From: Candidatus Komeilibacteria bacterium RIFOXYD1_FULL_37_29
GTDB lineage: Bacteria; Patescibacteriota; Patescibacteriia; UBA1558; GWA2-36-10
Assembly (NCBI GenBank): GCA_001818495.1
Contig: MHKS01000005.1
Location: 250,038 to 314,037 of the forward strand
DNA: 64,000 nt
Direction: 5' to 3'
Shown here: positions 19,687-37,799 of the stretch, piece after piece
Position numbering within the stretch: position 1 is the stretch's first letter
Layout of the letters: each line of letters starts with the position of its first letter
Notes under the pieces: model-generated
Told to the model about the DNA's origin: nothing
Databases searched by the model: none
The model's input: the letters and a program-made list of their open reading frames with translations, nothing else
Translations under genes and position numbers: made by a program

Positions 19687-19706
19687 TCCTTCGCTAAAGC
19701 TACGGA

Positions 19707-20021
19707 ATGACTAGCCATATGTTATATTATACTTACATTTTATTAAGCTCAAAATCTCATATTTTTTATTTTGGTTCAACGAATAATTTAAAAAATAGAT
19801 TGGAGCTGCATAATAGCGGCAAGGTAACATCAACTAAATCGCATATACCTTGGAAATTAGTTTGGTATTGTGTATTTGAAACGGAAAAACAGGCAAGAGA
19901 TTTTGAGCTTTATTTAAAAACAGGGTCAGGAAAATCTTTTGCTTATAAAAGACTTATTTCCGTGGCTTTAGAGAAGGATTTCAGGGAAGGGAGAATAGGT
20001 AGTCCGAAGCGGAAGCCTTAG
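19707..20021 (+). CDS. Small standalone GIY-YIG nuclease-domain protein.
   Basis: YTYILLSSKSHIFYFGSTNNLKNRLELHNSG matches the GIY…YIG…R…H/N…E catalytic motif set. 104 aa. Confidence 0.7.
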   Translation: MTSHMLYYTYILLSSKSHIFYFGSTNNLKNRLELHNSGKVTSTKSHIPWKLVWYCVFETEKQARDFELYLKTGSGKSFAYKRLISVALEKDFREGRIGSPKRKP

Positions 20022-20033
20022 CTTTTGCGAAGG

Positions 20034-20051
20034 ATACCTCCCTCTCCGCCA
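20034..20051 (+). repeat. Direct repeat of the tRNA-Ser 3' end (17 of 18 nt identical to 19669-19686), an att-like site.
   Basis: ATACCTCCCTCTCCGCCA versus tRNA ATCCCTCCCTCTCCGCCA. It brackets the GIY-YIG gene. Confidence 0.75.
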
Positions 20052-20190: not shown

Positions 20191-22020
20191 ATGTCTAAAA
20201 AAATTGATTACGACAACTGGTCAAAAGATGAGATAATCAAGGAGATTAGGCGAATCAAAGAAACTACATACGGACTTGTGTGGCATCGCGACTTACCTGA
20301 GGAAAAAATTGATATTCTTATAAACCCAGATGCTCGGACTCCAAATGAAATGTTCCCTAACGAAATGGCGGGCAAGCCATTTCCAGTTTTGAAAGAGGCA
20401 AAAACAAAAACAATTGAGACTGATAAAAATAAGCCGACAAATATTTTGATTGAGGGTGATAATTATCATTCTCTTGCCGTTTTGAATTTTACTCATCAAG
20501 AAGCAATTGATTTGATTTACATTGATCCGCCTTACAATACTGGCCACAACGATTTTGTTTACAATGATAAAATTAAAAGCGGTTATGTTGTTAAAGATGA
20601 TCCATTTAGGCATAGTAAATGGATTTCTTTCATGGAAAAAAGGTTAAAACTCGCAAAAAATTTATTGAAATCGTCGGGTGTTATTTTTATTAGTATTGAC
20701 GACAATGAATTTGCTCCATTAAAAATGCTGTGTGACGAGATTTTTGATGAAAGTAATTTCATCTCTATGTTGTCAATTGAAAATAATCCTAAGGGACGGA
20801 AAAACTCCGATTTTATATCTATTTGTAATGATTATTGTCTTATATACGCTAAAGACAAAGGTAAAAGTTATTTTGTTGAAAATATTCCCAAACAAGCTGA
20901 CGACTTAACGATTGATGATAATGGAGACTATGTACACAATAGCGGCAAACGGGTCCTTGTTGGAGAAAATAAATTTAATCCGCTTGTAGAAGATTTTGAA
21001 TCAGCTAAGCATTATAGTGTTTATTACAATCAGACTGATAATAAAATTAAAATAGAGGTGGAAAAAAATATTCACGAGGCAAACAAAGATTTATTAAAAA
21101 ACGGATATAAAAGATACTATTCTTATTTTGGAGACAGATTTGTCTTGAATACTTATACAAAATCAAAAATCATAGAGCTTTTCGAAGATGAGGCTCTCGA
21201 ATTCAAAAATGGGAGTATATATGAAAAAAATTTCAGCACAACAATTAGACTAAAAAGTCTTGTTATCAATAAAAAATATGAGGCAGTAATAAATAATGAA
21301 AAAGCAGAATATCAAATAGATGTTAAAACGACTTCAGCGAAGACTGAATTAAAGGATATTTTCAACACTGACCAAATTCCATTTGATAACCCCAAGAATA
21401 TTGGTTTGATAAAATTATTGGTAACATTATTTGAAAATAAATCAATAACTATTTTAGATTTTTTTGCAGGATCGGGAACGACCGGGCATGCAGTCCTTGG
21501 TCAAAATAAAGAAGATGGAGGAAATCGACAATTTATTCTGTGCACGAATAATGAAAATAATATATGCACTGATATCTGCTATCCCCGTCTTGGAAAAGTT
21601 ATAAAGGGATATAAAAATTCAAGAAATGAAAAAATTGATGGTTTGGGTGGAAACCTGAGATATTTTACTGCTTATGACTTTGTAGAAGCTAAGGAAACAG
21701 ATAGAAACAAAAGAAAACTAGTAAACCAATCAACAGAAATGCTTTGCATTAAGGAAAATGCTTTTGAGCTTGTGCAAGAAGTTGAAGATTATAAAATCTT
21801 CAAGAATCATGATAAATATTTGGGAATTATTTTTCATGAAGATTCTATATCGGACTATGTCAAAGCAATAAAAAAGATAAAAGGACACTTTAATACTTAT
21901 ACATTTTCAATGACGGATGATCCTCACAAAGAGGAATTTACTGATGTTGCGGACAAAGTAACTCTTTGTGCAATTCCAGAAATGATTTTGAAAGTATATC
22001 ATGAGATTTTCAAGGAATAA
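20191..22020 (+). CDS. mod: Type III restriction-modification methyltransferase (Mod), a beta-class N6-adenine/N4-cytosine MTase.
   Basis: DPPY (IDPPYNTG) precedes the FxGxG SAM motif (FFAGSGTTGHAV). The adjacent helicase-type res gene overlaps. Confidence 0.75.
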   Translation: MSKKIDYDNWSKDEIIKEIRRIKETTYGLVWHRDLPEEKIDILINPDARTPNEMFPNEMAGKPFPVLKEAKTKTIETDKNKPTNILIEGDNYHSLAVLNFTHQEAIDLIYIDPPYNTGHNDFVYNDKIKSGYVVKDDPFRHSKWISFMEKRLKLAKNLLKSSGVIFISIDDNEFAPLKMLCDEIFDESNFISMLSIENNPKGRKNSDFISICNDYCLIYAKDKGKSYFVENIPKQADDLTIDDNGDYVHNSGKRVLVGENKFNPLVEDFESAKHYSVYYNQTDNKIKIEVEKNIHEANKDLLKNGYKRYYSYFGDRFVLNTYTKSKIIELFEDEALEFKNGSIYEKNFSTTIRLKSLVINKKYEAVINNEKAEYQIDVKTTSAKTELKDIFNTDQIPFDNPKNIGLIKLLVTLFENKSITILDFFAGSGTTGHAVLGQNKEDGGNRQFILCTNNENNICTDICYPRLGKVIKGYKNSRNEKIDGLGGNLRYFTAYDFVEAKETDRNKRKLVNQSTEMLCIKENAFELVQEVEDYKIFKNHDKYLGIIFHEDSISDYVKAIKKIKGHFNTYTFSMTDDPHKEEFTDVADKVTLCAIPEMILKVYHEIFKE

Positions 22021-24262
22021 TTATATGTCATGGATTAATTTTAAAAATTATCAAGAAACTGCAATCGATGAAATACGCGACAAGATTAATGCCCTGCTCA
22101 AAAAAGAGGGTAATAGACTTTGCGTATTCAAAGCTCCGACTGGTTCGGGGAAAACTTTAATGATGGCGGAATGGATGATGAGGTTTTGTGACCCATATTC
22201 GCGAATTGATGGGAAAACTTTTTCTTTTGTATGGATAGCAGTAAATAAATTACATGATCAAAGCCATGACAGTTTAAAAAAGTTTTATGAGCTCAAAGGA
22301 GCGGGGCTTCGTTGTTCATATTTTCACGAACTTGAGGATAGAAAAATAAAACAGAACGAGATTTTATTTTTGAATTGGGCAAGTATCAATAATGAAGACA
22401 AGATTATTGTTCGCGCGAATGAAAGAGATAATAATCTCTCAACAATAATTGATCGGACCAAAGATGCCAGTCGGACAATTATTTTGATTATCGACGAAAG
22501 CCACCATACCGCAAAAAGTAAAAATTCAAAGGCTTTAATAAAAAATATTGACCCTAAAATTACGATCGAGGTTTCTGCTACACCAGAAATTTTTGATTTT
22601 GATGAGCGGGTAACCATTGATATTGAGGATGTACGAAGCGAGGAAATGATAAAGAAAGAAATTGTAGTGAACCCTGGCTTCAAAAATTACACAGTTGATC
22701 CAAAAAAGAACGATCAAACAGCAGACGAATTAATCTTGAAGTCTGCTTTGCAAAAAAGGATTGATTTGCGAAAAAAATTAGAAAAAGATGGTTCAAATGT
22801 CAATCCCTTATTACTTATTCAATTACCGGATACAAAAAAAGGAGTTCCTGATAAAAAAGAGGAGATTGAAACACTTCTTGCTAAATTTGGCTATACAACA
22901 AAAAATGGAAAGTTGGCTGTCTATCTTTCTGAAAAAGATAACAAAATAAATCTTGCTAATATTGAGAAAAATGAAAACGAAGTGGAGGTAATGATGTTCA
23001 AGCAAGCGATTGCACTTGGTTGGGATTGTCCAAGAGCTACAATTCTTGTGCTTTTCCGTCAATGGAAAGATGAAACGATAACATTCTCAATCCAAACATT
23101 GGGAAGAATCATGCGTATGCCTGAGCAAAAACATTATAAAGATCAAGAGTTGAATATTGCTTATCTTTATACTAGTTTACAAGACATTAATACTCGTATT
23201 TTGAAAGGTGCTTCGTCGGGAATAAAATCTCTTACGAGTTATCGCAATGAGAAATATAAAAATATTGACCTAATTTCATATCACTCAAAACGATTCCGTG
23301 AGGAAACTCGTTTGTCTTCTGATTTTGTGAAAATTTTTATCGAAGCCGCTAAAAAAACAAATTTAAAAGATGTTTCGCTAAAAGTCGGGATTGTGAAAAC
23401 AACAATGATCAAAGATGGACGCGTGGAAAATGCGGATAAAGAAATAACAAAGATTGAAAGTGATACTTTTTCTATACCCAAAACAGAGACGGAGCTGCAA
23501 TATACTTTTGATATGTTTGTGCTTGATAATCTTGATCCGTTTGAACATGAAGCCCGTTCTATAAAACGCATAAACGATTCAATTTATACTTTCTTTGGCG
23601 CACGACGCAAAGAAGATGAATGGCCTAAAATACAAGCCACGATACTTTCGTATGAAAAGAATCGCCAAGCTGTAATTGATGCTATTAATCTAGCAAAAGA
23701 TTTATATAAAACCGAAGTTGGAAAAGGCAAAAAAGAACTGATACAAAATGATGAGCCGTGGAATGTGCCAGAAGCTATTAATTTTGATCCGTCATTTGTA
23801 GAGCAAAATTATAAAAAATCTATAATGCAACCATATTACGCTCGTTCTCGGGATGGAGAAAACGGACGATTGTTTGAGGACAGTGAAATTGAAAATGATT
23901 TTATTAAATACCTAGAAAAAGCACAGAAAGTTGTTTGGTGGTTCAGAAATGGGAAACAAGACGGATCATTTTTTGCTGTCCCGCACATTGAACACGGACA
24001 AGAAAAGCCGTTTTATGTTGATTTTATAGTTATGATGAAAAATGGAACTGTTGGGCTTTTTGATACAAAATCAGGATATACTGCCGAACTAGCAAAATCT
24101 CGCTCTGATGGACTTGTAAAATATATTAATGAGCAGAAAAAGAAAAAAATTACTGGCGGAATTGTGAGATACGAAAAGAAAAGTTGGCTATATTTTACTA
24201 ACAAAGAATATAAATATAATCCGAATGATATAAAGGATTGGGAATTTTTGGATTTGAATTAA
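22001..24262 (+). CDS. res: Type III restriction enzyme Res subunit (SF2 helicase plus C-terminal PD-DxK nuclease).
   Basis: Walker A FKAPTGSGKT, DExH IIDESHH, C-terminal VDFIV…GLFDTK. The real start is probably the ATG near 22025. Confidence 0.75.
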   Translation: MRFSRNNYMSWINFKNYQETAIDEIRDKINALLKKEGNRLCVFKAPTGSGKTLMMAEWMMRFCDPYSRIDGKTFSFVWIAVNKLHDQSHDSLKKFYELKGAGLRCSYFHELEDRKIKQNEILFLNWASINNEDKIIVRANERDNNLSTIIDRTKDASRTIILIIDESHHTAKSKNSKALIKNIDPKITIEVSATPEIFDFDERVTIDIEDVRSEEMIKKEIVVNPGFKNYTVDPKKNDQTADELILKSALQKRIDLRKKLEKDGSNVNPLLLIQLPDTKKGVPDKKEEIETLLAKFGYTTKNGKLAVYLSEKDNKINLANIEKNENEVEVMMFKQAIALGWDCPRATILVLFRQWKDETITFSIQTLGRIMRMPEQKHYKDQELNIAYLYTSLQDINTRILKGASSGIKSLTSYRNEKYKNIDLISYHSKRFREETRLSSDFVKIFIEAAKKTNLKDVSLKVGIVKTTMIKDGRVENADKEITKIESDTFSIPKTETELQYTFDMFVLDNLDPFEHEARSIKRINDSIYTFFGARRKEDEWPKIQATILSYEKNRQAVIDAINLAKDLYKTEVGKGKKELIQNDEPWNVPEAINFDPSFVEQNYKKSIMQPYYARSRDGENGRLFEDSEIENDFIKYLEKAQKVVWWFRNGKQDGSFFAVPHIEHGQEKPFYVDFIVMMKNGTVGLFDTKSGYTAELAKSRSDGLVKYINEQKKKKITGGIVRYEKKSWLYFTNKEYKYNPNDIKDWEFLDLN

Positions 24263-24265
24263 ATT

Positions 24266-25450
24266 ATGGCATTAGAATCAGAAAAATTGGAAGAAAAAAT
24301 AGTTGATAATTATTTTACTGATACTCTATATAGTAGTCGGGAATTTAAGGGTGGAGTAGGTAAATTTTTTACAATAGTATCTCAGGATGAAAATGATATC
24401 CCAAATGTAGTTGATGTTGAGCATTCGTATCCTATACGCAATAAAATAAAGACAACGCTGACATTTATCAAAAAAGAAAACGAAATTACAGCCATTTCCT
24501 TTAAGCGTTTTAAATATTATAAAAAAGAACATTGGGTTGAACAACCAGAAGAACAGATTACTTTTTCATACAGTCTTTTTAAAAAAATTATTGGGTATTT
24601 ACAGTTACTATCAGAATTAAATTTGTCGGCTATTAGTGAGCGAAGAATTGCTTTAGCCGATGACACATTACCGAATATTGACGATGAAACAAAAAAGAAG
24701 ATTAAAACATTGCTTTTACGCAAAGATGGGCAAAAAATTATTGAGGAATTAATAAATAGCGGAATAATTACATCAACCGATATTGTAAATATCGGGTATC
24801 GAAAAAAACAACTTGATGTTTTTGAGAAGCTCCTGACACAACCCGATTATTTTGCAACCTATATAACTGAAAGTAAAATTACAGATACTCGTCATGAGTC
24901 TGTTTGGCAACATTTCTTCCATTCTAATGATTGGATTTTTGGATATGGACTAGATTATCGCTTTCTTGGCATCCTGCAAAAAGAAGCTCATATTTCAAAT
25001 ACAGACGTCGCAGGAAAAGGGGCTGTTATAAATGATTTTCTACTCGGGTGCAATAAATTCACCGTTTTGGTTGAATTAAAAAAACACGACACACCATTAT
25101 TTGGAAAAGACAAAAACCGGTCAAACTCTTGGACACTTTCAGATGATTTAATATCTGGTCTATCTCAAATATTAGAGCAAAAAGCTAGTTGGCAGGTTTC
25201 GGCCGAGACAAATGCAAGTGGAAATTTTGACGATAAGGGTAATTTGATAAAACAAAAAACTATCGATCCAAAAAGTATCTTAGTTATCGGATCAACAAAG
25301 CAATTTGATGGTGATGATAAAGAAAATCAAATTAAAGCAAAAACCTTTGAACTTTTTAGACGAGATTCAAGAAATATAGAAATTCTTACTTATGACGAAC
25401 TGTATGAGAGAGCGAAGTTTATTGTTGAACATAAACAGAAAGACAACTAG
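24266..25450 (+). CDS. Protein with a C-terminal PD-(D/E)xK nuclease-like core, possibly Shedu/DUF4263-like. Third gene of the R-M operon.
   Basis: E…VINDFLL…VLVELKK fits an E-D-ExK arrangement. Start lies 4 nt after the res stop. Confidence 0.45.
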   Translation: MALESEKLEEKIVDNYFTDTLYSSREFKGGVGKFFTIVSQDENDIPNVVDVEHSYPIRNKIKTTLTFIKKENEITAISFKRFKYYKKEHWVEQPEEQITFSYSLFKKIIGYLQLLSELNLSAISERRIALADDTLPNIDDETKKKIKTLLLRKDGQKIIEELINSGIITSTDIVNIGYRKKQLDVFEKLLTQPDYFATYITESKITDTRHESVWQHFFHSNDWIFGYGLDYRFLGILQKEAHISNTDVAGKGAVINDFLLGCNKFTVLVELKKHDTPLFGKDKNRSNSWTLSDDLISGLSQILEQKASWQVSAETNASGNFDDKGNLIKQKTIDPKSILVIGSTKQFDGDDKENQIKAKTFELFRRDSRNIEILTYDELYERAKFIVEHKQKDN

Positions 25451-25793: not shown

Positions 25794-26387
25794 ATGGATC
25801 AACAAACAATCAATACATACAACAGGATGTCACAAGAGTATGATGATGAAACAGCTGATTTTTGGGAGCGATTTCCTCGAACATTTCTTGATAAATTTAT
25901 TAAGCTATCCGGTAATAAAATACTTGATGTTGGGAGCGGACCAGGTAGAGATGGTTTGATACTTCAACAGGCCGGTAAAAATGTTGTCTGTGTGGATGCT
26001 TCTGCAGCAATGGTGAAATTGTCTTCAGACAGAGGTTTAAACTCTATAGTAGCCAGTTTCGACAATTTACCATTTGAAAATAATTCATTTGACGGCGTAT
26101 GGTCATATACTGCTCTTTTACATATTCCCAAAAAATCTATCGATACCCCTCTTCAAGAGATTTTTCGTATTATCAAACCTTCAGGTATTTTTGCTCTTGG
26201 TCTGATTGAAGGGGACACAGAAGGATACAAAGAAAGCTCTGAAGTGACTATGCCTCGTTGGTTTAGTTTCTATCAGAAAGACGAAGTTGAAAATTTATGC
26301 CAAAAGCACGGATTTGAGCTGGTTTACTTTGAGACTTTTAAACCAGGGTCCAAGCCCTATTTGAATTTTATTTTTCGAAAAATATAA
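25794..26387 (+). CDS. Class I SAM-dependent methyltransferase (small, 197 aa).
   Basis: ILDVGSGPGRDG motif I, post-I acidic residue, DGVWSYTALLH motif. Confidence 0.7.
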   Translation: MDQQTINTYNRMSQEYDDETADFWERFPRTFLDKFIKLSGNKILDVGSGPGRDGLILQQAGKNVVCVDASAAMVKLSSDRGLNSIVASFDNLPFENNSFDGVWSYTALLHIPKKSIDTPLQEIFRIIKPSGIFALGLIEGDTEGYKESSEVTMPRWFSFYQKDEVENLCQKHGFELVYFETFKPGSKPYLNFIFRKI

Positions 26388-26417
26388 TACTACTAGAACA
26401 TTTTTATCTATCTCAAT

Positions 26418-26665
26418 TTTCACTGTCTTTTCAGGCAGTTTTTTGGTATAATCAAAGCATTAATTAATAAAAATATTATGATTGACGAAGAAATAAAGCA
26501 AATTATTCAGGAAAATAAGGACACTTTGGCTAATATTGATAAAAGGATTGGTCGGATTGAGAAAAATTTTATTTGGAGTTCAATTTTTGGTTTTATAAAG
26601 ATTGTTATTATTGTAGCACCGATTGTTTTTGGTATTATTTATTTTACGCCATTTTTGAAAGATTT
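26418..26665 (+). repeat. Left copy of an approximately 248-bp direct repeat (promoter plus the 5' portion of a small membrane-protein gene).
   Basis: About 95% identical to 33401-33648. Confidence 0.85.
26444..26452 (+). promoter_or_regulatory. Extended -10 promoter element (TGgTATAAT) for the small membrane-protein gene. An identical copy lies at 33427-33435.
   Basis: TGGTATAAT 26 nt upstream of the ATG, duplicated inside the direct repeat. Confidence 0.55.
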
Positions 26666-26690
26666 AAATAAATTGGGTATTATTACATAA
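26478..26690 (+). CDS. Small coiled-coil/TM protein, a truncated paralog of 33461..33811.
   Basis: The first 60 aa are nearly identical to the 33461 copy, then the sequence diverges and ends. Confidence 0.55.
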   Translation: MIDEEIKQIIQENKDTLANIDKRIGRIEKNFIWSSIFGFIKIVIIVAPIVFGIIYFTPFLKDLNKLGIIT

Positions 26691-26707
26691 TTAAGAAATG
26701 GTAGTAT

Positions 26708-28426
26708 ATGAAAAAGTCAAAAGTCATATTAGGGATTACTGCCTTTAATCATGATTCTTCGGCGTGCTTAATTTATCAAGGTAGAGTAATTGCATTTTGT
26801 GAGGAGGAAAGATTCAATGGCATAAAACATACCGGAGATTTTCCGATAAAATCAATTTTATTTTGTTTAGAAAAAGCTGGTTTGTCATTAAATGATGTGA
26901 CTGATGTAGCTTTTTATTTTAATATTAAAAAATGTTTATTGAGTTATATAAAGAACAATAATCCACTCTATTATATTATTCATCCATCTTTATTTAAGAG
27001 GAAAAGATTTTATTATGAAATTATTTGGTTATTTAGTTTTATAAACAAAATTAATTCAATTAAAAAACTCCTTAATAATTATAAGATAAAGATTACTTAT
27101 GTAGATCATCATATGGCGCACGCTTGGTATGGGTATTTTTCTTCAAATTTTAAAAATTGCACGGTAGTTTCTAATGACAGCGTAGGCGAGAGTGTGAGTA
27201 GTTTAGCCGTAAAGATACAGAGAGAAGATAAAAAAATTATTTTTGGTAAGACATTCAGTCAAACAGACCCTCACTCTATTGGGTATTTGTATGGTGCTAT
27301 AACTGAATTTTTAGGATTCAAAAGAGGTCAAGACGAAGGAAAGGTTATGGCTATGGCGGCTTTAGGGAAAGATAAATATGTAAAATATTTTGATGACTTG
27401 ATTAGATATTTACCTAATGGGGAATTTAGAATAAGTAAGGAGTTGATTTCCTTACGTAATTTTCAGCCAAAATCACAAAGATTAAGCAATGATTTTTTAA
27501 AAAAATTTGGATATTATCGTCAACCCCAAGAACCATTTATCCAAAAGCATTATGATATTGCTTATGCAATACAAGGGGTAACGGAAAAAATTTTATATCA
27601 CCAATTAAAATATATTAATGATGATAATATAGTCATTACTGGTGGTATTGCTCAAAATAGTGTAGCCAACGGGAAACTCAACAATTTTTTTTATAAAAGA
27701 AATATATTTATTCCTCCGATTCCTAATGATGCCGGGTGTGGTATTGGCGCGGCGCTTTCTTTATATTATAAGTATTATGAAGATTTACCAGAGTTTGTGG
27801 ATACTGCGTTTTTAGGCCCAGAATTTTCTGATCATAAAATCATTAAAACATTAGAAAATAATAAAATAAATTTTAAAATTATAAAAAATCAGACGGAATT
27901 CATTATTAATGAGCTTTTGAAAAATAAGATTATCGCTATATATAGAAATGAGATGGAGTGTGGTCCTAGGGCATTAGGTAATAGGAGTATAATAGCCAAT
28001 CCAATTGATCCGGCGATGAAGAATTACATCAATGAAAAAATAAAACACCGTGAATTTTTTCAGCCATACGGCGGGTTGATTATTGATAAAAATGTTAAAG
28101 AAGTATTTGATTATAAGAATAAAAATATTTCCGGACCATATATGTCTTTTGTTTATCCAATTAAAGATAAATGGTTAAAAATGTTTCCATCTTTGGTTCA
28201 TTTTGATAAAACTTCTAGAATTCAAATAATAAAGAAGGAACAAAATTTTTTATATAGTCTCTTGGAAGAATTTTATAAAAAAACAGGTGTCCCCGTAATT
28301 ATAAATACTTCCCTTAATTTAAGAGGGCAGCCTATGGCAAGAAGCCATCAAGATGCTTTAAACACATTTTATAATTCGGGGATTCATTATATTTTATTTA
28401 ATAACAGTATTCTAGTTTCAAAATGA
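26708..28426 (+). CDS. Carbamoyltransferase, NodU/CmcH/NovN family (O-carbamoyltransferase).
   Basis: N-terminal ILGITAFNHDSSACL…CEEERFNGIKH and DHHMAHAW, the hallmarks of the NodU/CmcH family. 572 aa. Confidence 0.75.
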   Translation: MKKSKVILGITAFNHDSSACLIYQGRVIAFCEEERFNGIKHTGDFPIKSILFCLEKAGLSLNDVTDVAFYFNIKKCLLSYIKNNNPLYYIIHPSLFKRKRFYYEIIWLFSFINKINSIKKLLNNYKIKITYVDHHMAHAWYGYFSSNFKNCTVVSNDSVGESVSSLAVKIQREDKKIIFGKTFSQTDPHSIGYLYGAITEFLGFKRGQDEGKVMAMAALGKDKYVKYFDDLIRYLPNGEFRISKELISLRNFQPKSQRLSNDFLKKFGYYRQPQEPFIQKHYDIAYAIQGVTEKILYHQLKYINDDNIVITGGIAQNSVANGKLNNFFYKRNIFIPPIPNDAGCGIGAALSLYYKYYEDLPEFVDTAFLGPEFSDHKIIKTLENNKINFKIIKNQTEFIINELLKNKIIAIYRNEMECGPRALGNRSIIANPIDPAMKNYINEKIKHREFFQPYGGLIIDKNVKEVFDYKNKNISGPYMSFVYPIKDKWLKMFPSLVHFDKTSRIQIIKKEQNFLYSLLEEFYKKTGVPVIINTSLNLRGQPMARSHQDALNTFYNSGIHYILFNNSILVSK

Positions 28427-29247
28427 TTAAAGATTTTCAAAAGATAGAGTTTTTAAAATCACTTTACAGTGATAAAGACTTAATATCGTTTCGTGGCAAT
28501 TTTTTAAAAAATAATTCCAACCGTAAATTCTCATTAAGATCTTTTATTATTAAACTTTTGCCGATGCTAAAGGATAAAAAAATATTAGACATTGGTTGCG
28601 GAGACGGGTCATTCCTCAATAAATTACATACGGTATATCCTCAAAATAAATATTTTGGTTTGGATGTAGTAGATAATGCTAAATGCCATAAATTGAAATT
28701 TCTTGACTACAAAATTTATGATGGTAAATCCAGGGTTTATTATACGGAAAAATTTGATGTGATATTTTGTATGCACACTGTTTATCATATCGAAGATTTA
28801 TTCACTTTTTTTACAACGATGAAAGACTATTTAAAGCCCCATGGCATTATTATCATTACTACGAAGTCTAAATTGACTTTTCCTAAAATAGAATCAATCT
28901 TTTTAAAGATTGTCGGTAAGCTTGACTTAAAAAAATATTTAAAAATTAGCAAACACAGAGAGGAATCAAAATTTTGTTTGGAGAACGGATTAAACAGATT
29001 AAAAAAACACTTCGCTAGGCGGTCATTTAGTATAAATGAGTATGTTTTAGAAACGCAGGTTTTTGTTAATGACAAAAAAGATCTTTTGAAATATGTTTTT
29101 TCTACAAATAGATATAATATTTTGAAAGATACTTTAAACAAAAAAATTGTTGAAAAATATACAAAACTTTGGTTTGAAGAAATTGATAAAGATCAGATAT
29201 TCATTGATAAATATACGGAGGCTGTTTATTTAATAAAAAAATTATGA
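28423..29247 (+). CDS. Class I SAM-dependent methyltransferase.
   Basis: ILDIGCGDGSF motif I, D at the end of beta2, FDVIFCMHTVYH. Overlaps its neighbours and lies in the operon. Confidence 0.7.
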   Translation: MIKDFQKIEFLKSLYSDKDLISFRGNFLKNNSNRKFSLRSFIIKLLPMLKDKKILDIGCGDGSFLNKLHTVYPQNKYFGLDVVDNAKCHKLKFLDYKIYDGKSRVYYTEKFDVIFCMHTVYHIEDLFTFFTTMKDYLKPHGIIIITTKSKLTFPKIESIFLKIVGKLDLKKYLKISKHREESKFCLENGLNRLKKHFARRSFSINEYVLETQVFVNDKKDLLKYVFSTNRYNILKDTLNKKIVEKYTKLWFEEIDKDQIFIDKYTEAVYLIKKL

Positions 29248-30311
29248 AAATAGGTTATAGTTGCTGGGGATTTTTGGGTAACGGAATAAAGGATACACCG
29301 GATGGCGGGAGGAGTCACCGGTTGACTTTATTGAAAGAATTAATCCGTCAAGGAGTTGAAATAGTAATGTTGCAAAAGAATAGAGACCTCATTGAAGGCA
29401 ATCAAAGTTTTTCACGAAAGAATTTAATATTTAGTGGTGAGTTACCGGAAATAGATGCTCTATTTGTAGAATATAGATGGAAGATAGTAGGAAGGAATTA
29501 TAAGGTGAGAAAAAATAATCCAGCCTATACTCCGGATTTCGATAGACAGAGTGAATTAATTAATTTTTATAATAATAGAAATATTCCTATTATTATTTGG
29601 GATAAAGATCAGAAACTTGGTAAGAATGAAATAAAAGGCATTAAAAATTTGATTGTATTTGAACCTGCTTTAAAGCCAAGGTTTAATAGAAAAAGTTTAT
29701 TGTTTCCGATGGACAATCATAGAACAAAAATTGTCCTCAAATTGATAGGTAAGTATAAAAAAAATATTAAGAGCTCCAAGTTGTGTTACATTGGAAATCA
29801 ATATGAGAGAGATGGTAGTTTTAAAGAGTTTATTAATAAGCCAGCCAGTATGCTCGATACCAAAACACCAGTATTTGGTAATTGGAACAAATATCCAGAA
29901 AAGTATAAGCAAAATATGCAAAAATTTTCCAATGTTGAATTTAAAGGTAGGGTGCAGTTTAATAAAGTTAATAATATTTATAAAAAATCTTTTTCTACAG
30001 TTCTTATCGCGCCACGGAGATATTATATCACGGGTCATTTTACACAAAGATTATTTGAGGCAATGTGGGGCTTATGCATTCCTTTTACCCCGCAGCAATA
30101 TCATGGATGGCAGGGTTTAATAATAAAAGATTTTATAATTAGATCTGGCAAAGATTTAATAAATAAGATAAAAAAATTAGAAACAACGCCCGATTCAGAT
30201 ATAAGGAGAATGTTTGATAGACAGTTTGAGAAACTTAATTTATTTAATGCCAGTAAACAAGCCAGTATAATTATAAACGAAATCAATAATCATAATGGTA
30301 GACTCGGGTAA
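29244..30311 (+). CDS. GT-B glycosyltransferase resembling phage T4 DNA beta-glucosyltransferase (BGT), a candidate hydroxymethyl-pyrimidine DNA glycosyltransferase.
   Basis: 355 aa versus BGT at 351 aa. An MKI…N-terminus, YIGNQYERDGSFKEFI against BGT YGGSFRSGQRESKMVEFL, and FTQRLFEAMWGLCIPF against BGT ITLRVWETMASDAVMLI. The comparison is from memory and needs confirmation. Confidence 0.5.
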   Translation: MKIGYSCWGFLGNGIKDTPDGGRSHRLTLLKELIRQGVEIVMLQKNRDLIEGNQSFSRKNLIFSGELPEIDALFVEYRWKIVGRNYKVRKNNPAYTPDFDRQSELINFYNNRNIPIIIWDKDQKLGKNEIKGIKNLIVFEPALKPRFNRKSLLFPMDNHRTKIVLKLIGKYKKNIKSSKLCYIGNQYERDGSFKEFINKPASMLDTKTPVFGNWNKYPEKYKQNMQKFSNVEFKGRVQFNKVNNIYKKSFSTVLIAPRRYYITGHFTQRLFEAMWGLCIPFTPQQYHGWQGLIIKDFIIRSGKDLINKIKKLETTPDSDIRRMFDRQFEKLNLFNASKQASIIINEINNHNGRLG

Positions 30312-31074
30312 TAAAAATAAATCTTTAGAAATTGTAATTGATTCTAAACACTATATTAAAAAAAGATATTCTGATATCCAACGTTTTTTTTGTGAATTAA
30401 AATATCTTAAATATTTTAAAGATGAAGATATCAATGTTCCTTTTATATATAAATTTGATAAAATCCAAAAAACAATAATAATAGATAAAATAAAGGGGAA
30501 AATCGGCGATTCATTAAATAATAGAGACACAAAACTATGCATTGATGTGCTTGTCAAAATAATTTTTATTTTTGGTTTGGAAAAGAAAAATAATAATGAA
30601 ATTGATAGGTATATTTCAAAAGTCAGGTCAAATATAATATGGTGGTGTGAAAATAATAATTATATAGTAGAAAAAGAAAAATTAAATATTTTACTTCAAA
30701 AGTTAAGAAAAGTGTGTTATATATCTTTATTCAAAGATGCCAAACCATCTAATTGGATTTTTCAAAAAGATAAAATATACGCAATAGACTTTGATTATGT
30801 AAAAAAATCATTTTTTTTAGCAGATTTAGCACAACTTTTAAGTTATATTTCATTAAGGAAAAAAATAAGTTATATTTTCTTTGTAAATTATTATCTAAAG
30901 CAAATATTCCCAAAAATGAAGGATTATGATAAATTTTATATACCTTTTAAATTAGCGCTTGTTAATTCCAACATTGCTTCTGAACTTCACAGAGAGAATT
31001 TAGGAGCCTATGTAAAAAGGGGTTTTGCCAAACAAAACAGGTTTATTTTGAGTGAATTTAAGATAATATTATAA
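30295..31074 (+). CDS. Small protein-kinase-like fold phosphotransferase (Kdo-kinase/APH-like).
   Basis: Catalytic-loop-like FKDAKPSNWIF (D-x-K-P-x-N) and IYAIDFDY (DFG-equivalent). 259 aa. Confidence 0.5.
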   Translation: MVDSGNKNKSLEIVIDSKHYIKKRYSDIQRFFCELKYLKYFKDEDINVPFIYKFDKIQKTIIIDKIKGKIGDSLNNRDTKLCIDVLVKIIFIFGLEKKNNNEIDRYISKVRSNIIWWCENNNYIVEKEKLNILLQKLRKVCYISLFKDAKPSNWIFQKDKIYAIDFDYVKKSFFLADLAQLLSYISLRKKISYIFFVNYYLKQIFPKMKDYDKFYIPFKLALVNSNIASELHRENLGAYVKRGFAKQNRFILSEFKIIL

Positions 31075-31955
31075 TGTCAATATCAATAACCGCCAAATCA
31101 GCTAATGAAGCATTCATTAAAATAGCTGATAAATTGTATAATAATCCGGAATATGTTTCTAGTCCTCGAAGCTGGGAAACAAGGGAGTTATTAGGGGCTT
31201 TTATTGTTATCAACAATCCCTATGATCGTTTTATAAATAATGTTCATAGGAAGATTTCTTTAAAGTATCTTATTGGTGAATGGTTATGGTATGAGCGAGG
31301 ATCCAATTCTTTAAATGAAATTAATTATTATGCAAAATTTTGGAGCAGTATTTCGGATGATAAAATAACTGCCAATTCAGCTTATGGTCATAGAATTTTA
31401 GGGATCAATAAGTTCGTGATTATTAATCAATGGAAGTGGGCCAAACGGCAAATAATAAAAGATAAGGAAACAAGGAGAGCCATCATTTTTATTGGATTGC
31501 CAAGTGATATGAAAAACGAAACGAAAGATTTTCCTTGCACTATGTCACTCCAGTTTTTAATAAGAAATAATGAGTTACATTTAATTTGCAATATGAGGAG
31601 CAATGATTTAGTATTGGGTTTTACTTATGATGTAGCTACCTTTACTTTATATCAAGAAAAAATGTTGTTGGAGTTGAAAAAATATTATCCAAAATTAAAG
31701 ATAGGTAAATATTTTCATATGGTAGGCAGTTTACACGTATATAAGAAAAACTATGAGATGATAAAAAAAGTGATAAATGATCAGGACAATAATTTGAAAA
31801 TTACCATGCCTCGCATGGGTGATTTAAAAGAAATAAAAAAACTCCAGTATAACGAGAGTATTATAAGAGAAAATAAAAATAAAAAGTTTAAAAAAATTGA
31901 AGATAGATTCTGTATCTGGTGTCAGAATATTTTATTAAATAAAATTAAATACTAA
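31074..31955 (+). CDS. Thymidylate-synthase-family pyrimidine hydroxymethylase, predicted dCMP hydroxymethylase (T4 gp42-like).
   Basis: ThyA-fold motifs EWLWYERG, catalytic Cys in FPCTMSLQF and MRSNDLVLGFTYDVATF. This aligns gap-free to E. coli ThyA QRSCDVFLGLPFNIASY with Asp at the Asn177 position, which is the cytosine-specificity switch. Confidence 0.6.
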   Translation: MSISITAKSANEAFIKIADKLYNNPEYVSSPRSWETRELLGAFIVINNPYDRFINNVHRKISLKYLIGEWLWYERGSNSLNEINYYAKFWSSISDDKITANSAYGHRILGINKFVIINQWKWAKRQIIKDKETRRAIIFIGLPSDMKNETKDFPCTMSLQFLIRNNELHLICNMRSNDLVLGFTYDVATFTLYQEKMLLELKKYYPKLKIGKYFHMVGSLHVYKKNYEMIKKVINDQDNNLKITMPRMGDLKEIKKLQYNESIIRENKNKKFKKIEDRFCIWCQNILLNKIKY

Positions 31956-31956
31956 A

Positions 31957-32628
31957 ATGAAAGGCATAATTATAGACGGAGTTGTTTCTTCTGGTAAAAC
32001 GTCTATCTTAAAACATCTTCATCGTCTGATTTCAGAACAAAACCCTACTTCAACCAAGTTTTTTATTAGTGAACACTATACTGAGAGAATGTTGGAGCAT
32101 TTGAAAGATAAAGGTGAATTAGACGGTAGCCATATAAAAGCCCACGTTGATCAGTTAATCCATACTTTAGCTTCTTTTCAGTCTATGTTGGATAATTCTA
32201 AGTTTCGTGATAACCCGAAAGGAGCAGATTTGTTTGTTACTTTAGAAAGATTTATTCTAACCCATTTGTCCTCAGTGGACATAGGAGATAAATATAGTCT
32301 TGATGAAGTCAAAGCTCATTTTGAAATTTTAAACAAGCTAGGAGTAAAACAAGTAGCTTTAATAATTCCCGAATCAAGACTAAAAGAAAATATCATGTCG
32401 ACTCTGCAATATCGAAATGACGCCTGGTTGGATTATTTGTATTCTAGGGGTGGAGAAAAAGAAATTATAGAATATTATATCAATTGGCAGAATAATTTTT
32501 TAGAGTATATCAACAAATTTAAAGATATAATAGATACCTTAGTCATCGAAGTAAAAGATCAAGACTATCTTCAATATAGTAATACTATTTTTAATAGTTG
32601 TATTAAATCAGATATTCTCTCAAAATAA
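31957..32628 (+). CDS. P-loop nucleotide kinase (dNMP-kinase-like, possibly T4 gp1-like, or a 5-hm-pyrimidine kinase).
   Basis: Walker A GVVSSGKTS similar to T4 gp1 GVKRSGKDT. No Tmk DRY/TxEPGG motifs. 223 aa. Confidence 0.45.
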   Translation: MKGIIIDGVVSSGKTSILKHLHRLISEQNPTSTKFFISEHYTERMLEHLKDKGELDGSHIKAHVDQLIHTLASFQSMLDNSKFRDNPKGADLFVTLERFILTHLSSVDIGDKYSLDEVKAHFEILNKLGVKQVALIIPESRLKENIMSTLQYRNDAWLDYLYSRGGEKEIIEYYINWQNNFLEYINKFKDIIDTLVIEVKDQDYLQYSNTIFNSCIKSDILSK

Positions 32629-33114
32629 ATGTTTTTTAATTTTATGTTTTTTATACTTTACCCCGGCTAAATCAAAGAGTTTTTTAGAAACGATAAAATT
32701 ATTCGCATCTTTGTCTGATCTATCATCTTGATAGATTATATTTTTTATGCCGCTTTGGATAATAATTTTTGCACACTCATTGCAGGGGAAGAGTAAACAG
32801 TAAAGTTTTGCATTTTCGGCTGATTGATTAGTATTTAAAATGGCATTTACTTCAGCGTGAACAACATACGGATATTTTGTATTTAAGATATTTTTTTTGT
32901 TATGCCCGTAATTATTACTCCAAGAAAAATGCCCTTCCTTAATACCTCTAGGCCAACCGTTGTAGCCAACTCCTAAAACAACATTATTTTTATCAACCAC
33001 GACAGCTCCGGTTTGAGTTGATGGGTCTTTTGATCTCTGAGCTATAACTTGAGCCATTAGCATAAATGTTTCATCCCACGATAAATAGTTTTTTCTAGCT
33101 TTTATATTATCCAT
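32620..33114 (-). CDS. dCMP deaminase (deoxycytidylate deaminase, zinc-dependent).
   Basis: HAEVNAI and PCNECAKII zinc-binding motifs. 164 aa. Confidence 0.85.
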   Translation of the reverse strand: MDNIKARKNYLSWDETFMLMAQVIAQRSKDPSTQTGAVVVDKNNVVLGVGYNGWPRGIKEGHFSWSNNYGHNKKNILNTKYPYVVHAEVNAILNTNQSAENAKLYCLLFPCNECAKIIIQSGIKNIIYQDDRSDKDANNFIVSKKLFDLAGVKYKKHKIKKHLF

Positions 33115-33400
33115 TTTTGTAGGTTAGATCACTTTATAAGAATATAATACCCCATACTTATCTTAAAAGTCAAAGATTATAACTATTATTTTTATGTCGA
33201 AACTAGTCAACAAACTAAAACCGAGAAAAATTTTTGGTTGTCAGAAAGAAGCTTGAATAATATAGGCAAGAAAGAGAGTTTTATTATAATGCTCGGAGGA
33301 GATATGTGAAATATTATGAACCAAACATTTAATTCGCAATGATTACTGGTTGTTCTATATAAAAAGATAGAGCCGTTAGTGTTAGTTGACGATTTCTGTT

Positions 33401-33648
33401 TTTCACTGTCTTTTCAGGCAGTTTTTTGGTATAATCAAAGCATTAATTAATAAAAATATTATGATTGACGAAGAAATAAAGCAAATTATTCAGGAAAATA
33501 AGGAAACTTTAGCTAATATTGATAAAAGAATTGGTCGGATTGAGAAAAATTTTATTTGGAGTTCAATTTTTGGTTTTGTAAAGATTGTTATTATTTTAGG
33601 GCCGATTATTTTTGGTATTATTTATTTTACGCCATTTTTAAAAGATTT
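33401..33648 (+). repeat. Right copy of the approximately 248-bp direct repeat.
   Basis: About 95% identical to 26418-26665. Confidence 0.85.
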
Positions 33649-33811
33649 TATTCGTATTTATGAACCATTTTTCAAGAATCTACCGATTACTTTACAAAAT
33701 TTAAACAATCCTTCTTCGGACTCAAATATTCCAACTGGCGCTCAGGCTGGGTTAGAAAATTTTTGTGATCCACAAGTTCGCGAGGCCATGATCGATAGTC
33801 TTTGTAAATAA
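33461..33811 (+). CDS. Small coiled-coil/TM protein, the full-length paralog of 26478..26690.
   Basis: The ORF track gives 33386..33811. The ATG at 33461 corresponds to the start of the paralog and lies downstream of the duplicated promoter. Confidence 0.55.
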   Translation: MIDEEIKQIIQENKETLANIDKRIGRIEKNFIWSSIFGFVKIVIILGPIIFGIIYFTPFLKDFIRIYEPFFKNLPITLQNLNNPSSDSNIPTGAQAGLENFCDPQVREAMIDSLCK

Positions 33812-33817
33812 AAAATC

Positions 33818-34903
33818 ATGGAAGAATTACGCAGTAAAATAAAAACTTTATTTTTGGAGATTTCTAAATCTTTGAAAATTTTTGATTTAGAAAATAAAAA
33901 AAGTAAATTGGGAGAACTCAAAAACGAAATGACCAGACCAGACTTTTGGAATGACCAAGAACGAGCCAAAAATATTAGCTGGCAAGCCAGTGTTTTGGAG
34001 AAGGGTATCAATGACTGGCAGAATATAGCCAAGGAAGTAGCCGAGCTTAATGATTTGTCTCAAGATCAGCAGGCTGAGGAGTTATTAAAAGAATTGGAAA
34101 ATAAGTATAATATTCTTTATAATCAATTTACATCTTTGGCCGTTCAACTTTTTCTGCAAGGAAAATATGACGAGCTAGCCGCTATCATCACTGTCAATGC
34201 TGGAGCCGGAGGAGTAGATGCTCAAGACTGGGCGCAAATGATCGAAAGAATGTATTTACGACTAGCTGAGAAAAATAATTGGCAGGTCCATTTGATGTCG
34301 CGTTCAGTCGGCTCGGAAGCAGGGATTAAAAGTGTGATTTTTAAAGTCCAAGGTCCTTATGCTTATGGCTATTTAAAAAACGAAGCTGGAGTACATCGTT
34401 TGGTCCGTTTGTCGCCTTATGATGCTGATCACGCCCGGCATACTTCTTTTGCTATGTTAGAAGTTTTGCCGGAGATAATCAATCCGGAGATAGATATCAA
34501 AGAAGAAGATATCAAAGTTGATACTTTTCGGTCTTCTGGTAATGGCGGTCAGTCGGTCAATACTACTGATTCGGCTGTGCGGGTGACACATCTACCAACG
34601 GGAATTTCCGCTGGCTGTCAAAACGAGAGATCACAGATACAAAATAAAAAGCAAGCTCTCAGTCATCTCTACGCCAAATTGCAAAAATATTATGAGGCCG
34701 AGCAAGAAGACGAAAGAAAAATGATAAAGGGAGAATATACCGAAGCGGCTTGGGGCAATCAAATTCGCTCTTATGTTATTCATCCGTATAAAATGGTCAA
34801 AGACCATCGGACAAATTTTCAGTCCAAAGATCCAGACAGGGTCTTAGGTGGAGATTTAATGCCATTTATTAAGGCCAATTTGGAAAAAAATGTAGTGGCC
34901 TAA
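33818..34903 (+). CDS. prfB: Peptide chain release factor 2.
   Basis: SPxD-region, GGQ motif (SGNGGQSVNTTDSAVR). Full-length with no frameshift required. Confidence 0.85.
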   Translation: MEELRSKIKTLFLEISKSLKIFDLENKKSKLGELKNEMTRPDFWNDQERAKNISWQASVLEKGINDWQNIAKEVAELNDLSQDQQAEELLKELENKYNILYNQFTSLAVQLFLQGKYDELAAIITVNAGAGGVDAQDWAQMIERMYLRLAEKNNWQVHLMSRSVGSEAGIKSVIFKVQGPYAYGYLKNEAGVHRLVRLSPYDADHARHTSFAMLEVLPEIINPEIDIKEEDIKVDTFRSSGNGGQSVNTTDSAVRVTHLPTGISAGCQNERSQIQNKKQALSHLYAKLQKYYEAEQEDERKMIKGEYTEAAWGNQIRSYVIHPYKMVKDHRTNFQSKDPDRVLGGDLMPFIKANLEKNVVA

Positions 34904-36485: not shown

Positions 36486-37799
36486 TTGATGAGCAAAAGC
36501 AAAATATTTTTGTTGGTTAGTTTTATTTTTTTAGCTGGTAATTTTTTTTGGTTGTTATATTTTGAAGATAGGGGAAACCATAATTTTAATTATGGTTCTT
36601 TTTATAGTTTCACCGCCCAGGTAGTCAGAGTTGATAAAAAAATTAATGGTTATAATATTGTGGTCCGTCCCGAAGGACTGGCCGATTTTTTCGGTCAGAT
36701 TTTGTTGTATACGCCACTTTACCCGGAGTATTATTATGGCGATATTTTGCAAATCTCCGGCAAGATTTATCAGCCGGAAAAACTAGCTGGCGACGATGGT
36801 CAGGTTTTTGCTTATGATAAATATCTCGCCAAAGATAATATTTTTGGCACCAGCTTCCGGCCGATTTTAAAAAAAATTGGTCAGTCAAAAAATCTGACTT
36901 TTTATGTTTATCAGGCCAGGCATTATTTTTGGCAAAACCTCAATGATTATTTGAGAGAGCCAGCTTCGGCTTTGGCCAAGGCCATGTTTTTGTCTCCTCA
37001 GCGGGAAATCAGCCCAGAGCTTTGGGATGTTTTTGCCAAAGTCGGCGTCAGTCATATGATCTCTATTTCCGGTTCGCATATGGTGATTATTATTTGGTTG
37101 TTGCAGTCTTTTTTGATTGCCGTGGGGTTTAGCAGAAAATCAGCTTGGTGGTGGCTGGTGATTTTTTTGTTGTTTTATTTATATTTGATTGGTTTTATCA
37201 GTCCGGCGGTACGCTCGGCCGCCATGGCTATCATTTTATTGTCCGGGCCATTTGTGGGTCGTCAGACTGATTCAGTTTATAGTCTGTTTTTGGTGGCCGA
37301 TATTTTGGTAGCTTTAAATCCTTTTATTATTTTATATGATATTGGTTTTCAGTTGTCTTTTTTGGCGGTTTTGGGATTGGTGTATTATGCTAGATTTTTT
37401 AATAAAATTTTGATTTTTATTCCTAGTAAATTCAAATTGCGCGAAGTCTTGGCCATGACTTTGGCCTCACAAGTGTTTACTTGGCCAATTACTGTTTATA
37501 ATTTTGGTATATTTTCCATTGTGGCTCCTTTGGCCAATTTTTTGATTCTGCCACTACTTCCAGCAGTTTTAGTTTTGTCCATGGCTTTAAGTGTCTGTGG
37601 CTTTTGGCCGTTTTTAGCCGAGCTTATCTCCTGGTCATTATTTTTGCTTTTAAAAATCATTGTCTTGATCAGTCAGCTGTTATCGCAAGTGTCTTATGCT
37701 TCTGTTTATATCAAAGGTTTTGATATTTGGTCTTTGTTTTTGTCTTTATTTTTTATAGGTGTTATTACTTGGATTTTAAAGCCACGGTCTTATGAATAA
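36486..37799 (+). CDS. comEC: ComEC/Rec2 DNA-uptake channel, N-terminal part (DUF4131 OB fold plus the membrane competence domain).
   Basis: VGVSHMISISGSHMVIII competence-domain motif and many TM helices. Confidence 0.7.
   Translation: MMSKSKIFLLVSFIFLAGNFFWLLYFEDRGNHNFNYGSFYSFTAQVVRVDKKINGYNIVVRPEGLADFFGQILLYTPLYPEYYYGDILQISGKIYQPEKLAGDDGQVFAYDKYLAKDNIFGTSFRPILKKIGQSKNLTFYVYQARHYFWQNLNDYLREPASALAKAMFLSPQREISPELWDVFAKVGVSHMISISGSHMVIIIWLLQSFLIAVGFSRKSAWWWLVIFLLFYLYLIGFISPAVRSAAMAIILLSGPFVGRQTDSVYSLFLVADILVALNPFIILYDIGFQLSFLAVLGLVYYARFFNKILIFIPSKFKLREVLAMTLASQVFTWPITVYNFGIFSIVAPLANFLILPLLPAVLVLSMALSVCGFWPFLAELISWSLFLLLKIIVLISQLLSQVSYASVYIKGFDIWSLFLSLFFIGVITWILKPRSYE

Follow-up and report, generated by a model that had tools for sequence, protein, structure and literature searches.

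The locus analysed here raises the question of how a seven-gene cassette came to lie between two copies of the same promoter and of the 5' part of the same small gene, directly upstream of prfB. The window is a stretch of 64,000 nt from Candidatus Komeilibacteria bacterium RIFOXYD1_FULL_37_29, a groundwater organism (assembly GCA_001818495.1, contig MHKS01000005.1, positions 250,038 to 314,037 of the forward strand). All coordinates refer to the window, and related loci are designated by L numbers. The repeated segments are read here as the scar of an insertion-duplication produced by general host recombination, and neither as the ends of a mobile element nor as parts of a switch; the probability of this reading was estimated at roughly 55%. 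The repeat anatomy, the position of the junction, a fusion open reading frame (ORF), cassette-free relatives, the absence of mobility genes and the recurrence in other lineages were observed; the donor, the order of events, the use of the promoters and the chemistry of the cargo are inferred.

A repeat search of the window detected a direct repeat pair of 249 nt, ungapped and identical at 240/249 positions (96%), with a spacing of 6,983 nt. The left copy is located at 26417..26665 and the right copy at 33400..33648, both on the plus strand, and the pair is the sole long dispersed repeat within the 64-kb window. Pairwise alignment including the flanks revealed sharp edges, with identity dropping abruptly outside both ends. 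The direct repeats of about 248 bp and 95% identity reported in a preliminary description of this DNA are real and far above chance, and precise alignment did not yield a much lower identity. Each copy opens with a terminator-like hairpin (26422..26439, plus strand, and 33405-33422), consisting of a 7-bp stem formed by ACTGTCT and AGGCAGT around TTTC and followed by T6. The hairpin scores as an intrinsic terminator (-7.1 kcal/mol, z -3.1) and marks the edge of a conserved module. It is followed by the extended -10 promoter TGGTATAAT (26444..26452, plus strand, and 33427-33435), a 5' untranslated region and the first codons of the small gene (codons 1-62 in the left copy), the part of the small ORF inside each repeat amounting to 62 2/3 codons. 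An extended -10 promoter and some 60 codons, as described earlier, were accordingly seen in both copies. The copies differ at exactly nine offsets (105, 111, 129, 178, 196, 200, 201, 208 and 240), the first 105 nt being free of any difference. Eight codons are hit by the nine differences, giving five conservative replacements (D15E, I40V, V46L, A47G and V50I) and three synonymous changes.

The left and the right junction are both spanned in L001 and in L016, which are separate assemblies. In addition, the left copy is spanned by L017, L020, L025 and L026, and the right copy by L002-L006. Since both junctions recur in separate spanning assemblies, several independent contigs crossing each of them, an origin of the duplication as an assembly artefact was rejected. 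An exact 30-mer of the promoter module gave 0 matches in collections of metagenome and genome contigs that do not include the locus of this organism.

The left junction was located by comparison with the closest related cassette, L028/L029, which comprises seven genes in the same order and shares ~84% nucleotide identity with window positions 26651-33108. A short leader ORF (MQTLLFEDYAKFLDDLDRLKIIK) precedes the carbamoyltransferase gene in L028. Similarity between the window and L028 begins at 26651, 15 nt inside the repeat, and the 15-nt patch at 26651..26665 (plus strand, ATTTTTGAAAGATTT) is the segment in which homology to L028 starts and homology to the right copy ends. In the left copy the patch is followed by AAATAA; the right copy reads ATTTTTAAAAGATTT (33634-33648) followed by TATTCG, and the L028 leader reads ATTTTTAGACGATTT followed by AGATAG. 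Small gene and leader match here at 13/15 positions and in frame. No other 15-mer matches as well among the 38,606 position pairs between the whole small-gene module and the L028 leader, and the match stops precisely at the repeat edge, 33648. A 70-aa ORF (26478..26690, plus strand) runs across the patch and joins small-gene codons 1-62 to the last eight leader codons. Because the join is in frame and the tail of the ORF, FLKDLNKLGIIT, is homologous to the leader tail of L028, FLDDLDRLKIIK, the ORF is, as judged from these alignments, the fusion product of the two. The left gene had been described as truncated to 70 aa and the right one as intact with 117 aa; both descriptions hold except for the latter length, which is 116 aa.

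Relatives with an unoccupied site were found. L014 (~93% nucleotide identity) carries the same methyltransferase gene, a 92-aa membrane-protein gene that is absent from the window, the intact small gene and prfB, and no cassette. The loci L008/L009 (59% protein identity) have the 92-aa gene, the small gene and prfB, and are also cassette-free. In L010 (52% protein identity), which is without the entire 19.4-33.4 kb segment of the window, a homologue of window ORF 18840-19406 is followed by the small gene 89 nt later. L015 and L007, closer and more distant relatives, have other genes upstream of a single intact small gene. In L007-L010 and L015 the small gene directly precedes prfB wherever the contig reaches that far. 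The search of relatives for a single intact small gene upstream of prfB, suggested earlier as the appearance of an empty site, was thus positive, and the proposed insertion of the cassette at the small gene was borne out by the cassette-free loci L014, L008/L009, L010 and L015 and by the location of the cassette elsewhere in other lineages. Since L014, at ~93% identity, has the methyltransferase gene, the intact small gene and prfB without the cassette, the comparison indicates that the cassette was gained as a unit at the small gene. An upstream plus-strand ORF in L005 was considered as a further empty site and rejected, as it is collinear with the cassette side.

On the left, the repeat begins where the conserved hairpin/promoter module begins. 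In every relative, the similarity to the window opens at this edge, the hairpin base, and synteny ends there in L008, L010 and L012-L015. The hairpin is kept across the relatives, L010 building it from a different sequence, and TGnTATAAT is kept in L008, L010 and L012-L015. Because similarity starts at the hairpin base in every relative, the region upstream of the hairpin/promoter module is, on the available alignments, a hotspot of variable content, of which the cassette is one insertion. In the related strains L012 (positions 1-1194) and L013, similarity to the window stops at 33843; the prfB frame ends after 13 codons, ~9 of which are conserved, and is followed by a Fic-like gene. These two loci represent another insertion at the 5' end of a gene in the same hotspot, and their contigs end before a possible duplicated prfB start.

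According to the reading preferred here, a cassette of ~6.7 kb without an evident promoter of its own would have entered the Komeilibacteria chromosome at the small gene before prfB. One crossover would have been illegitimate, at the 15-nt patch (13/15) between small-gene codons 58-62 and the leader ORF of the cassette. The other would have been homologous, within the block of terminator, promoter, small gene and prfB that was also present on the incoming DNA. The latter presumably originated from a closely related strain which already had the cassette before its small gene. Two routes are conceivable. In the first, a linear fragment would have been integrated by double crossover, the patch serving as the left join and any point of the small-gene/prfB block as the right one, i.e. 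by homology-facilitated illegitimate recombination (HFIR). In the second, a single crossover would have integrated a 6,983-nt circle that had earlier been excised from a donor-type strain through the same patch. The resulting order would be the resident promoter, 62 codons plus leader tail (the 70-aa ORF), the cassette, the second promoter, the intact small gene and prfB. The observed layout fits an insertion-duplication with a 5' fragment and promoter, in which only the upstream copy is cut short and what is duplicated is the shared segment itself.

With respect to expression, the hairpin of the left copy would insulate the six-gene operon from upstream transcription, and TGGTATAAT would drive this operon. 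The right copy would end read-through and maintain expression of the small gene and of the essential prfB. Retention of the duplication could be explained by a need for both promoter copies, one for the operon and one for the small gene and prfB. Neighbouring genes among the six on the plus strand of the cassette overlap or are almost contiguous, and the first of them starts 17 nt after the fusion ORF. As these genes follow the fusion ORF so closely and no better promoter candidate is evident, the left module probably terminates upstream transcription and drives the cassette operon, its extended -10 element, read from the sequence, being the best candidate promoter. A promoter across the junction (26655-26683) is not claimed, as the consensus scan performed no better than on shuffled sequences.

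The nine variable sites were compared with alleles of relatives. The left copy is mostly ancestral-like (sites 111, 178 and 200). The right copy has three states unique to it, including those at 111 and 200, a state at 178 that otherwise occurs only in the distant L010, and two states shared with L015-type alleles. This pattern fits copies of two origins. Several observations count against an insertion-duplication by transfer. Neither the donor arrangement, in which the cassette with its own leader would immediately precede the small gene, nor the exact recipient order of methyltransferase gene, 29 nt and module was found in the relatives. At least one extra event is needed, because the window is without the 92-aa gene of L014. 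A 13/15 patch somewhere is reached by 20% of shuffled leaders, which leaves the position of the patch alone as informative. L028 is unrelated to the window at the right junction, so that the comparison is uninformative there. A scan for the sigma-70 consensus was not enriched over shuffled sequences and is uninformative in AT-rich DNA; promoter activity and operon structure stay putative. The occurrence of three lineages with three targets, described below, is awkward for a two-step history of donor and recipient, and a dedicated mechanism could be involved. Finally, the identity between the two copies (96.4%) exceeds that of either one to any sampled allele (<=95.5%), and both share five extra nucleotides (TTTTC) upstream of the hairpin. 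Duplication in place would explain the closeness of the copies and the TTTTC extension; gene conversion could also have homogenised them.

The last two observations, together with the missing donor and recipient arrangements, are the reason for keeping such a duplication in place as the main rival, unlikely as it was judged to be. The cassette would already have been located upstream of the small gene, and a local rearrangement would have copied the terminator/promoter/5' segment to the front of the cassette, by unequal sister-chromosome exchange or by template switching at the 15-nt patch followed by deletion. The original upstream region would have been replaced, and transfer between strains would not be involved. 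The patch junction fits this course of events equally well, and the lack of the 92-aa gene to the left of the left copy is as expected for a remodelled flank. However, simple unequal exchange at the patch doubles the 6,983-nt unit and gives two cassettes, so that a second, precise deletion is required. Moreover, it is the left copy that is ancestral at 111, 178 and 200 and the functional right copy that is derived, the opposite of what is expected for a recent copy that subsequently decayed.

L016 (GCA_036736165.1) and the window disagree at 6 of 20,351 positions, and four of these six are located inside the repeats (chance of at least four of six, 5e-6). All four are at copy-distinguishing sites, and all are switched to the base of the other copy. 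The right copy of L011 has left-type bases at offsets 178-208, the left copies of L003 and L027 contain right-type bases, and in L021 an almost fully right-type repeat is joined to the start of the cassette. For each repeat copy, six assemblies match the window. These mosaics suggest that the copies still exchange short tracts by gene conversion. Simplification of the assembly graph between repeats that are 96% identical could mimic mosaics in short-read assemblies. The locus P0010/L011 was considered as a hybrid resulting from excision and rejected, as the contig has the upstream flank of the cassette side and corresponds to a mosaic right copy.

The same mosaics suggest an interaction of the repeats, as would be expected of a programmed on/off switch, in which the cassette would be excised and reinstated through recombination of one repeat with the other. 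A repeat of 249 nt with 96% identity suffices for RecA-dependent deletion, and several contigs break at the repeat. Such breaks are nevertheless expected from short-read graphs, and a precise deletion or circle junction was absent from all contigs read that encode an identical small protein (18), carbamoyltransferase (21) or upstream methyltransferase (23). Furthermore, deletion is irreversible without a system for maintenance or re-integration of the circle, and no recombinase is present. A switch was consequently regarded as barely credible. The contigs of L019 and L113 span one period plus an overlap, as repeats produce in assemblies. The empty site of L014 is not an excision product, since it belongs to a diverged strain with an extra gene. 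Deletion of the RecA type between the repeats is possible in principle, none being observed among the contigs read. As to the preliminary description, in which the cassette was proposed to be lost or gained as a unit, to be exchangeable through the repeats, or to be phase-variable, the gain is supported by the cassette-free relatives. Loss, exchange and phase variation, the last conceivable at low frequency, found no support, as no excision product was detected in the 18, 21 and 23 contigs and a recombinase is missing.

The direct repeats could also represent attL and attR of an integrase-type element that supplies a replacement for the 5' end of its target gene, the recombinase acting in trans or having been lost. 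Such an element would account for direct repeats flanking a low-GC unit, for the restored target gene and for the presence of flanking repeats in three lineages, and the small inverted repeat at the start of each copy might be a binding site. Searches against Pfam, PHROGs, NCBIfam and PADLOC detected no integrase, serine recombinase or transposase among the seven cassette genes and their neighbours, the nearest nuclease-type gene being a GIY-YIG gene at 19707-20021. Chance microhomology with the leader ORF accounts for the left junction, no excised form was found among the contigs read, and the repeats of the three lineages differ wholly (249, ~40 and 59 nt), which excludes a common att core. 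An integrase-type origin is therefore very improbable. A transposon or insertion sequence (IS) was ruled out, as a transposase and terminal inverted repeats are missing and the duplications are long and variable in length; the repeat search gave no inverted repeats pairing the ends of the cassette.

The seven-gene cassette occurs in other chromosomal contexts in other lineages of the Candidate Phyla Radiation (CPR). In L028/L029 it is located before a different gene (155 aa) and is flanked by a repeat of ~40 nt containing TGTGGTATAAT. Since the copies are only 92-95% identical, this repeat is not an overlap from a circular assembly. In L113/L114 (glycosyltransferase 63% identical) a 7,317-nt unit, consisting of a histidine phosphatase gene and the seven genes, follows a GAPDH gene and a membrane-protein gene. 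It is flanked by a 59-nt repeat of 97-98% identity comprising a hairpin, a T-run and TTGACT, and its outer flanks are distinct on both sides. Three lineages thus have three targets and three unrelated, target-derived duplications (249, ~40 and 59 nt). At the more distant cassettes L030-L035, L044, L110, L112 and L115, flanking repeats were sought and not found. In a further reading, the ~7-kb hydroxymethylcytosine-type cassette may be a kind of CPR mobile unit in its own right, inserting just downstream of resident promoters and duplicating 40-250 nt of the target. Such a unit would use a recombinase-independent or trans-acting mechanism, capture a promoter, preserve the downstream gene and possess arms that allow exit as a circle and re-entry into related genomes. 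This was considered improbable; if true, the unit could spread a modification of self DNA acting in concert with the Type III restriction and Shedu genes nearby.

Two further observations concern the surroundings of related cassettes. IS-type transposase genes adjoin the cassette in L115 (967-1962, IS30-like) and L031 (13111-14100, integrase-core type), and the cassette may also travel with IS elements. The L028/L029 genome contains another dispersed element (GGAGCCACTTAAATAATCGCTTAAyAGAGCGGTTATTTT, 82% identity between copies) on both sides of the 155-aa gene (L029 4658-5275 and L028 6796-6918), which suggests that this lineage has repeat-rich intergenic regions.

The DNA between the repeats of the window comprises 6,734 nt and seven genes. 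Six are encoded on the plus strand. The first (26708..28426) encodes a carbamoyltransferase of the NodU/CmcH type (572 aa) with Carbam_trans_N/C domains, and the second (28423..29247) a methyltransferase dependent on S-adenosylmethionine (SAM; 274 aa). The third (29244..30311) encodes a glycosyltransferase of the CgeB/Glyco_trans_1_2 family (355 aa), the family profile of which matches T4 DNA beta-glucosyltransferase (1bgt, E 4.4e-7). The fourth product (30295..31074) is a kinase-like protein of 259 aa with weak similarity to APH/Bud32, its Streptomyces counterpart matching APH. The fifth (31074..31955) is a cytosine-nucleotide 5-hydroxymethylase of the thymidylate synthase (TS) fold with 293 aa, assigned by homology to MilA and the T4 enzyme. 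Among solved structures it matched the CMP 5-hydroxymethylase MilA (1.5e-30), T4 dCMP hydroxymethylase (gp42, 1.3e-17) and thymidylate synthases (~1e-13), and it keeps the cytosine-type Asp at the base-specifying position (in TYDVATF). The sixth (31957..32628) is a P-loop protein of 223 aa with the fold of nucleoside or nucleoside-monophosphate (NMP) kinases. No informative match resulted when the 223-aa and 259-aa sequences were compared with solved structures, and only a fold search with the predicted structure (mean predicted local distance difference test 89.5) placed the 223-aa protein, by matches to adenylate, dTMP and uridine-cytidine kinases with template modelling scores of ~0.5-0.57. 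The seventh gene (32620..33114) is located on the minus strand, convergent with the operon, and encodes a dCMP deaminase of 164 aa. The intergenic region upstream of it (33115..33399) belongs to the cassette side and is not homologous to the corresponding region of L028; it contains minus-strand promoter-like sites which by themselves are not significant.

A carbamoyltransferase that co-occurs with a TS homologue and dCMP deaminase on contigs of modified phages makes 5-carbamoyloxymethylcytosine (PMC8670742). Because of this precedent and the homologies given above, a nucleic-acid modification pathway of the 5-hydroxymethylcytosine (5hmC) type is the best-supported reading of the cargo. The product may instead be a nucleotide-derived metabolite, an option kept because the same gene set is present in many actinomycete chromosomes and MilA is the closest solved hydroxymethylase. 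The earlier label of a DNA-modification operon plus dCMP deaminase is backed by homology, from which the implied chemistry is predicted. A collection of viral contigs was scanned with the glycosyltransferase and the TS-like protein and yielded no relatives, and hence no evidence of phage origin there.

The set of TS-like protein, carbamoyltransferase, glycosyltransferase, methyltransferase, APH-like kinase and histidine phosphatase is present in many actinomycete chromosomes. The core set (26708-33114 in the window; L030-L109; 7099-13950 in L084), often accompanied by the histidine phosphatase, is conserved in chromosomes of several CPR phyla and in metagenome-assembled genomes of Rickettsiales and Bdellovibrionales. 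It was also found in dozens of genomes of Streptomyces, Kitasatospora and Micromonospora. The set seems to represent a widespread and so far uncharacterised pathway based on 5hmC enzymes of the phage type.

The intact small gene (33461..33811, plus strand, 116 aa) is restricted to a narrow Komeilibacteria clade. Its product starts with a helix, has a single transmembrane segment and contains two conserved Cys residues in its C-terminal part, and belongs to a tiny family of 5 clusters among 5.8 billion proteins. The gene for release factor 2, prfB (33818..34903, plus strand, 361-aa ORF), starts 6 nt 3' of the small gene. It also adjoins the small gene in L009, L014 and L015 and is probably co-transcribed with it from the right promoter copy. 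In L001 (99.7% identical to the window) prfB was called as two ORFs of 259 and 108 aa. A frameshift or an error of sequencing could account for the split, as could the classical programmed frameshift, which the single 361-aa ORF of the window does not have.

The GC content of the cassette is 0.285, compared to 0.33 for the neighbouring genes and 0.37-0.40 for the core genome. The cassette forms the inner part of a low-GC region that begins after tRNA-Ser (19597-19686) and also contains the GIY-YIG gene, Type III restriction-modification genes, Shedu and a SAM methyltransferase gene (25794-26387). Type III mod (20191-22020), Type III res (22001-24262) and the Shedu SduA gene (24266-25450) constitute a defence-type island immediately upstream of the cassette; this island is absent from L010. 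Downstream of the cassette locus, prfB is followed by an unknown gene, the competence gene ComEC (36486-37799, 2.7 kb downstream) and ribosomal protein genes.

The GIY-YIG gene (19707-20021) is located between two exact copies of the tRNA-Ser 3' end, CCTCCCTCTCCGCCA (19672-19686 and 20037-20051), with the inverted repeats TCCTTCGCTAAAGCTA (19687-19702) and TAGCTTTTGCGAAGGA (20019-20034) just inside these copies. The segment 19672-20051 has the appearance of a small element with a GIY-YIG gene that was inserted where the tRNA ends. The tRNA-Ser 3'-end repeat was rejected as a boundary of the cassette or island, as only two copies exist, one on each side of the GIY-YIG gene. An 84-nt tandem duplication (19429-19596, 96% identical) immediately precedes tRNA-Ser(cga). 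Each unit opens with GGAGAGGT, resembling a tRNA 5' end, and contains GC-rich hairpins; the units may be pseudo-tRNA fragments or a small structured RNA. A cobalamin riboswitch (16745-16885; Rfam, 34.4 bits) precedes a prenyltransferase/DUF4430-like gene, and a 3,578-aa ORF with internal repeats is present at the start of the window (77-10813).

The insertion-duplication reading provides a base-level picture of how a streamlined CPR bacterium, without obvious mobile-element machinery at the locus, would have acquired an entire operon. A single join at microhomology together with one homologous crossover would suffice, and the resulting duplication of the promoter is positioned to express the new genes while leaving the essential downstream gene unsilenced. 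As the same outcome was found in two other lineages, insertion with promoter duplication is suggested to be a recurrent and probably selected route for this cassette. The structure as such is of a known kind (insertion-duplication/HFIR). Of greater interest are its recurrence at three targets and its cargo, a phage-like gene set predicted to serve cytosine hydroxymethylation and decoration that resides on chromosomes of several CPR phyla and of many actinomycetes.

For the route through a circular molecule there is an experimental precedent. In an assay designed for HFIR in Escherichia coli, 56 of 60 recombinants gave the PCR product diagnostic of a duplication; sequencing of 14 recombinants revealed 109-950-bp duplications of the homologous segment, formed by single crossover of a circular molecule (PMC3240628). 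Transformation also creates duplications in pneumococcus (PMC3784515). The window shares with Campbell-type insertion-duplication an insert flanked by a duplicated segment, the upstream copy being truncated and the downstream copy complete with promoter. It differs in that the event is natural, plasmid backbone and replication genes are missing, the circular intermediate is hypothetical, and one edge of the shared segment would itself have been made by a microhomology join with the leader ORF.

Phage 21 and e14, which integrate at the 3' end of icd, and islands targeting tRNA genes are integrative elements that replace the end of their target gene. In these elements, as at the cassette, a near-identical substitute keeps the target intact and the displaced segment stays truncated at the other end. 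Elements of the phage 21/e14 type, however, encode an integrase and use a defined att core; neither was found at the cassette, where the promoter-bearing 5' end is duplicated. With respect to the cargo, phage 5hmC pathways (gp42, gp1, beta-glucosyltransferase and cd of T4, and the 5hmC carbamoyltransferase of PMC8670742) have counterparts in the cassette. Its hydroxymethylase carries the cytosine-type Asp, its NMP-kinase-fold protein and dCMP deaminase are further shared elements, and its carbamoyltransferase and its T4 beta-glucosyltransferase relative are candidates for decorating enzymes. In contrast to phage pathways, the cassette is located on the chromosome of a CPR bacterium beside Type III restriction-modification and Shedu genes, and no dCTPase was seen for it. 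The closest solved hydroxymethylase is not a phage enzyme; it is MilA, which acts on CMP in antibiotic synthesis.

HFIR takes place during natural transformation in Acinetobacter, Streptococcus pneumoniae and Pseudomonas stutzeri. In the classical form, recipient DNA between the two joins is usually deleted. The window shares with HFIR one homologous anchor and one join at short identity, the acquisition of foreign genes without mobility genes, and ComEC near the locus, competence of the organism being putative. It differs from the classical form in that the illegitimate join would have occurred inside the anchor region, so that 249 nt were duplicated rather than deleted.

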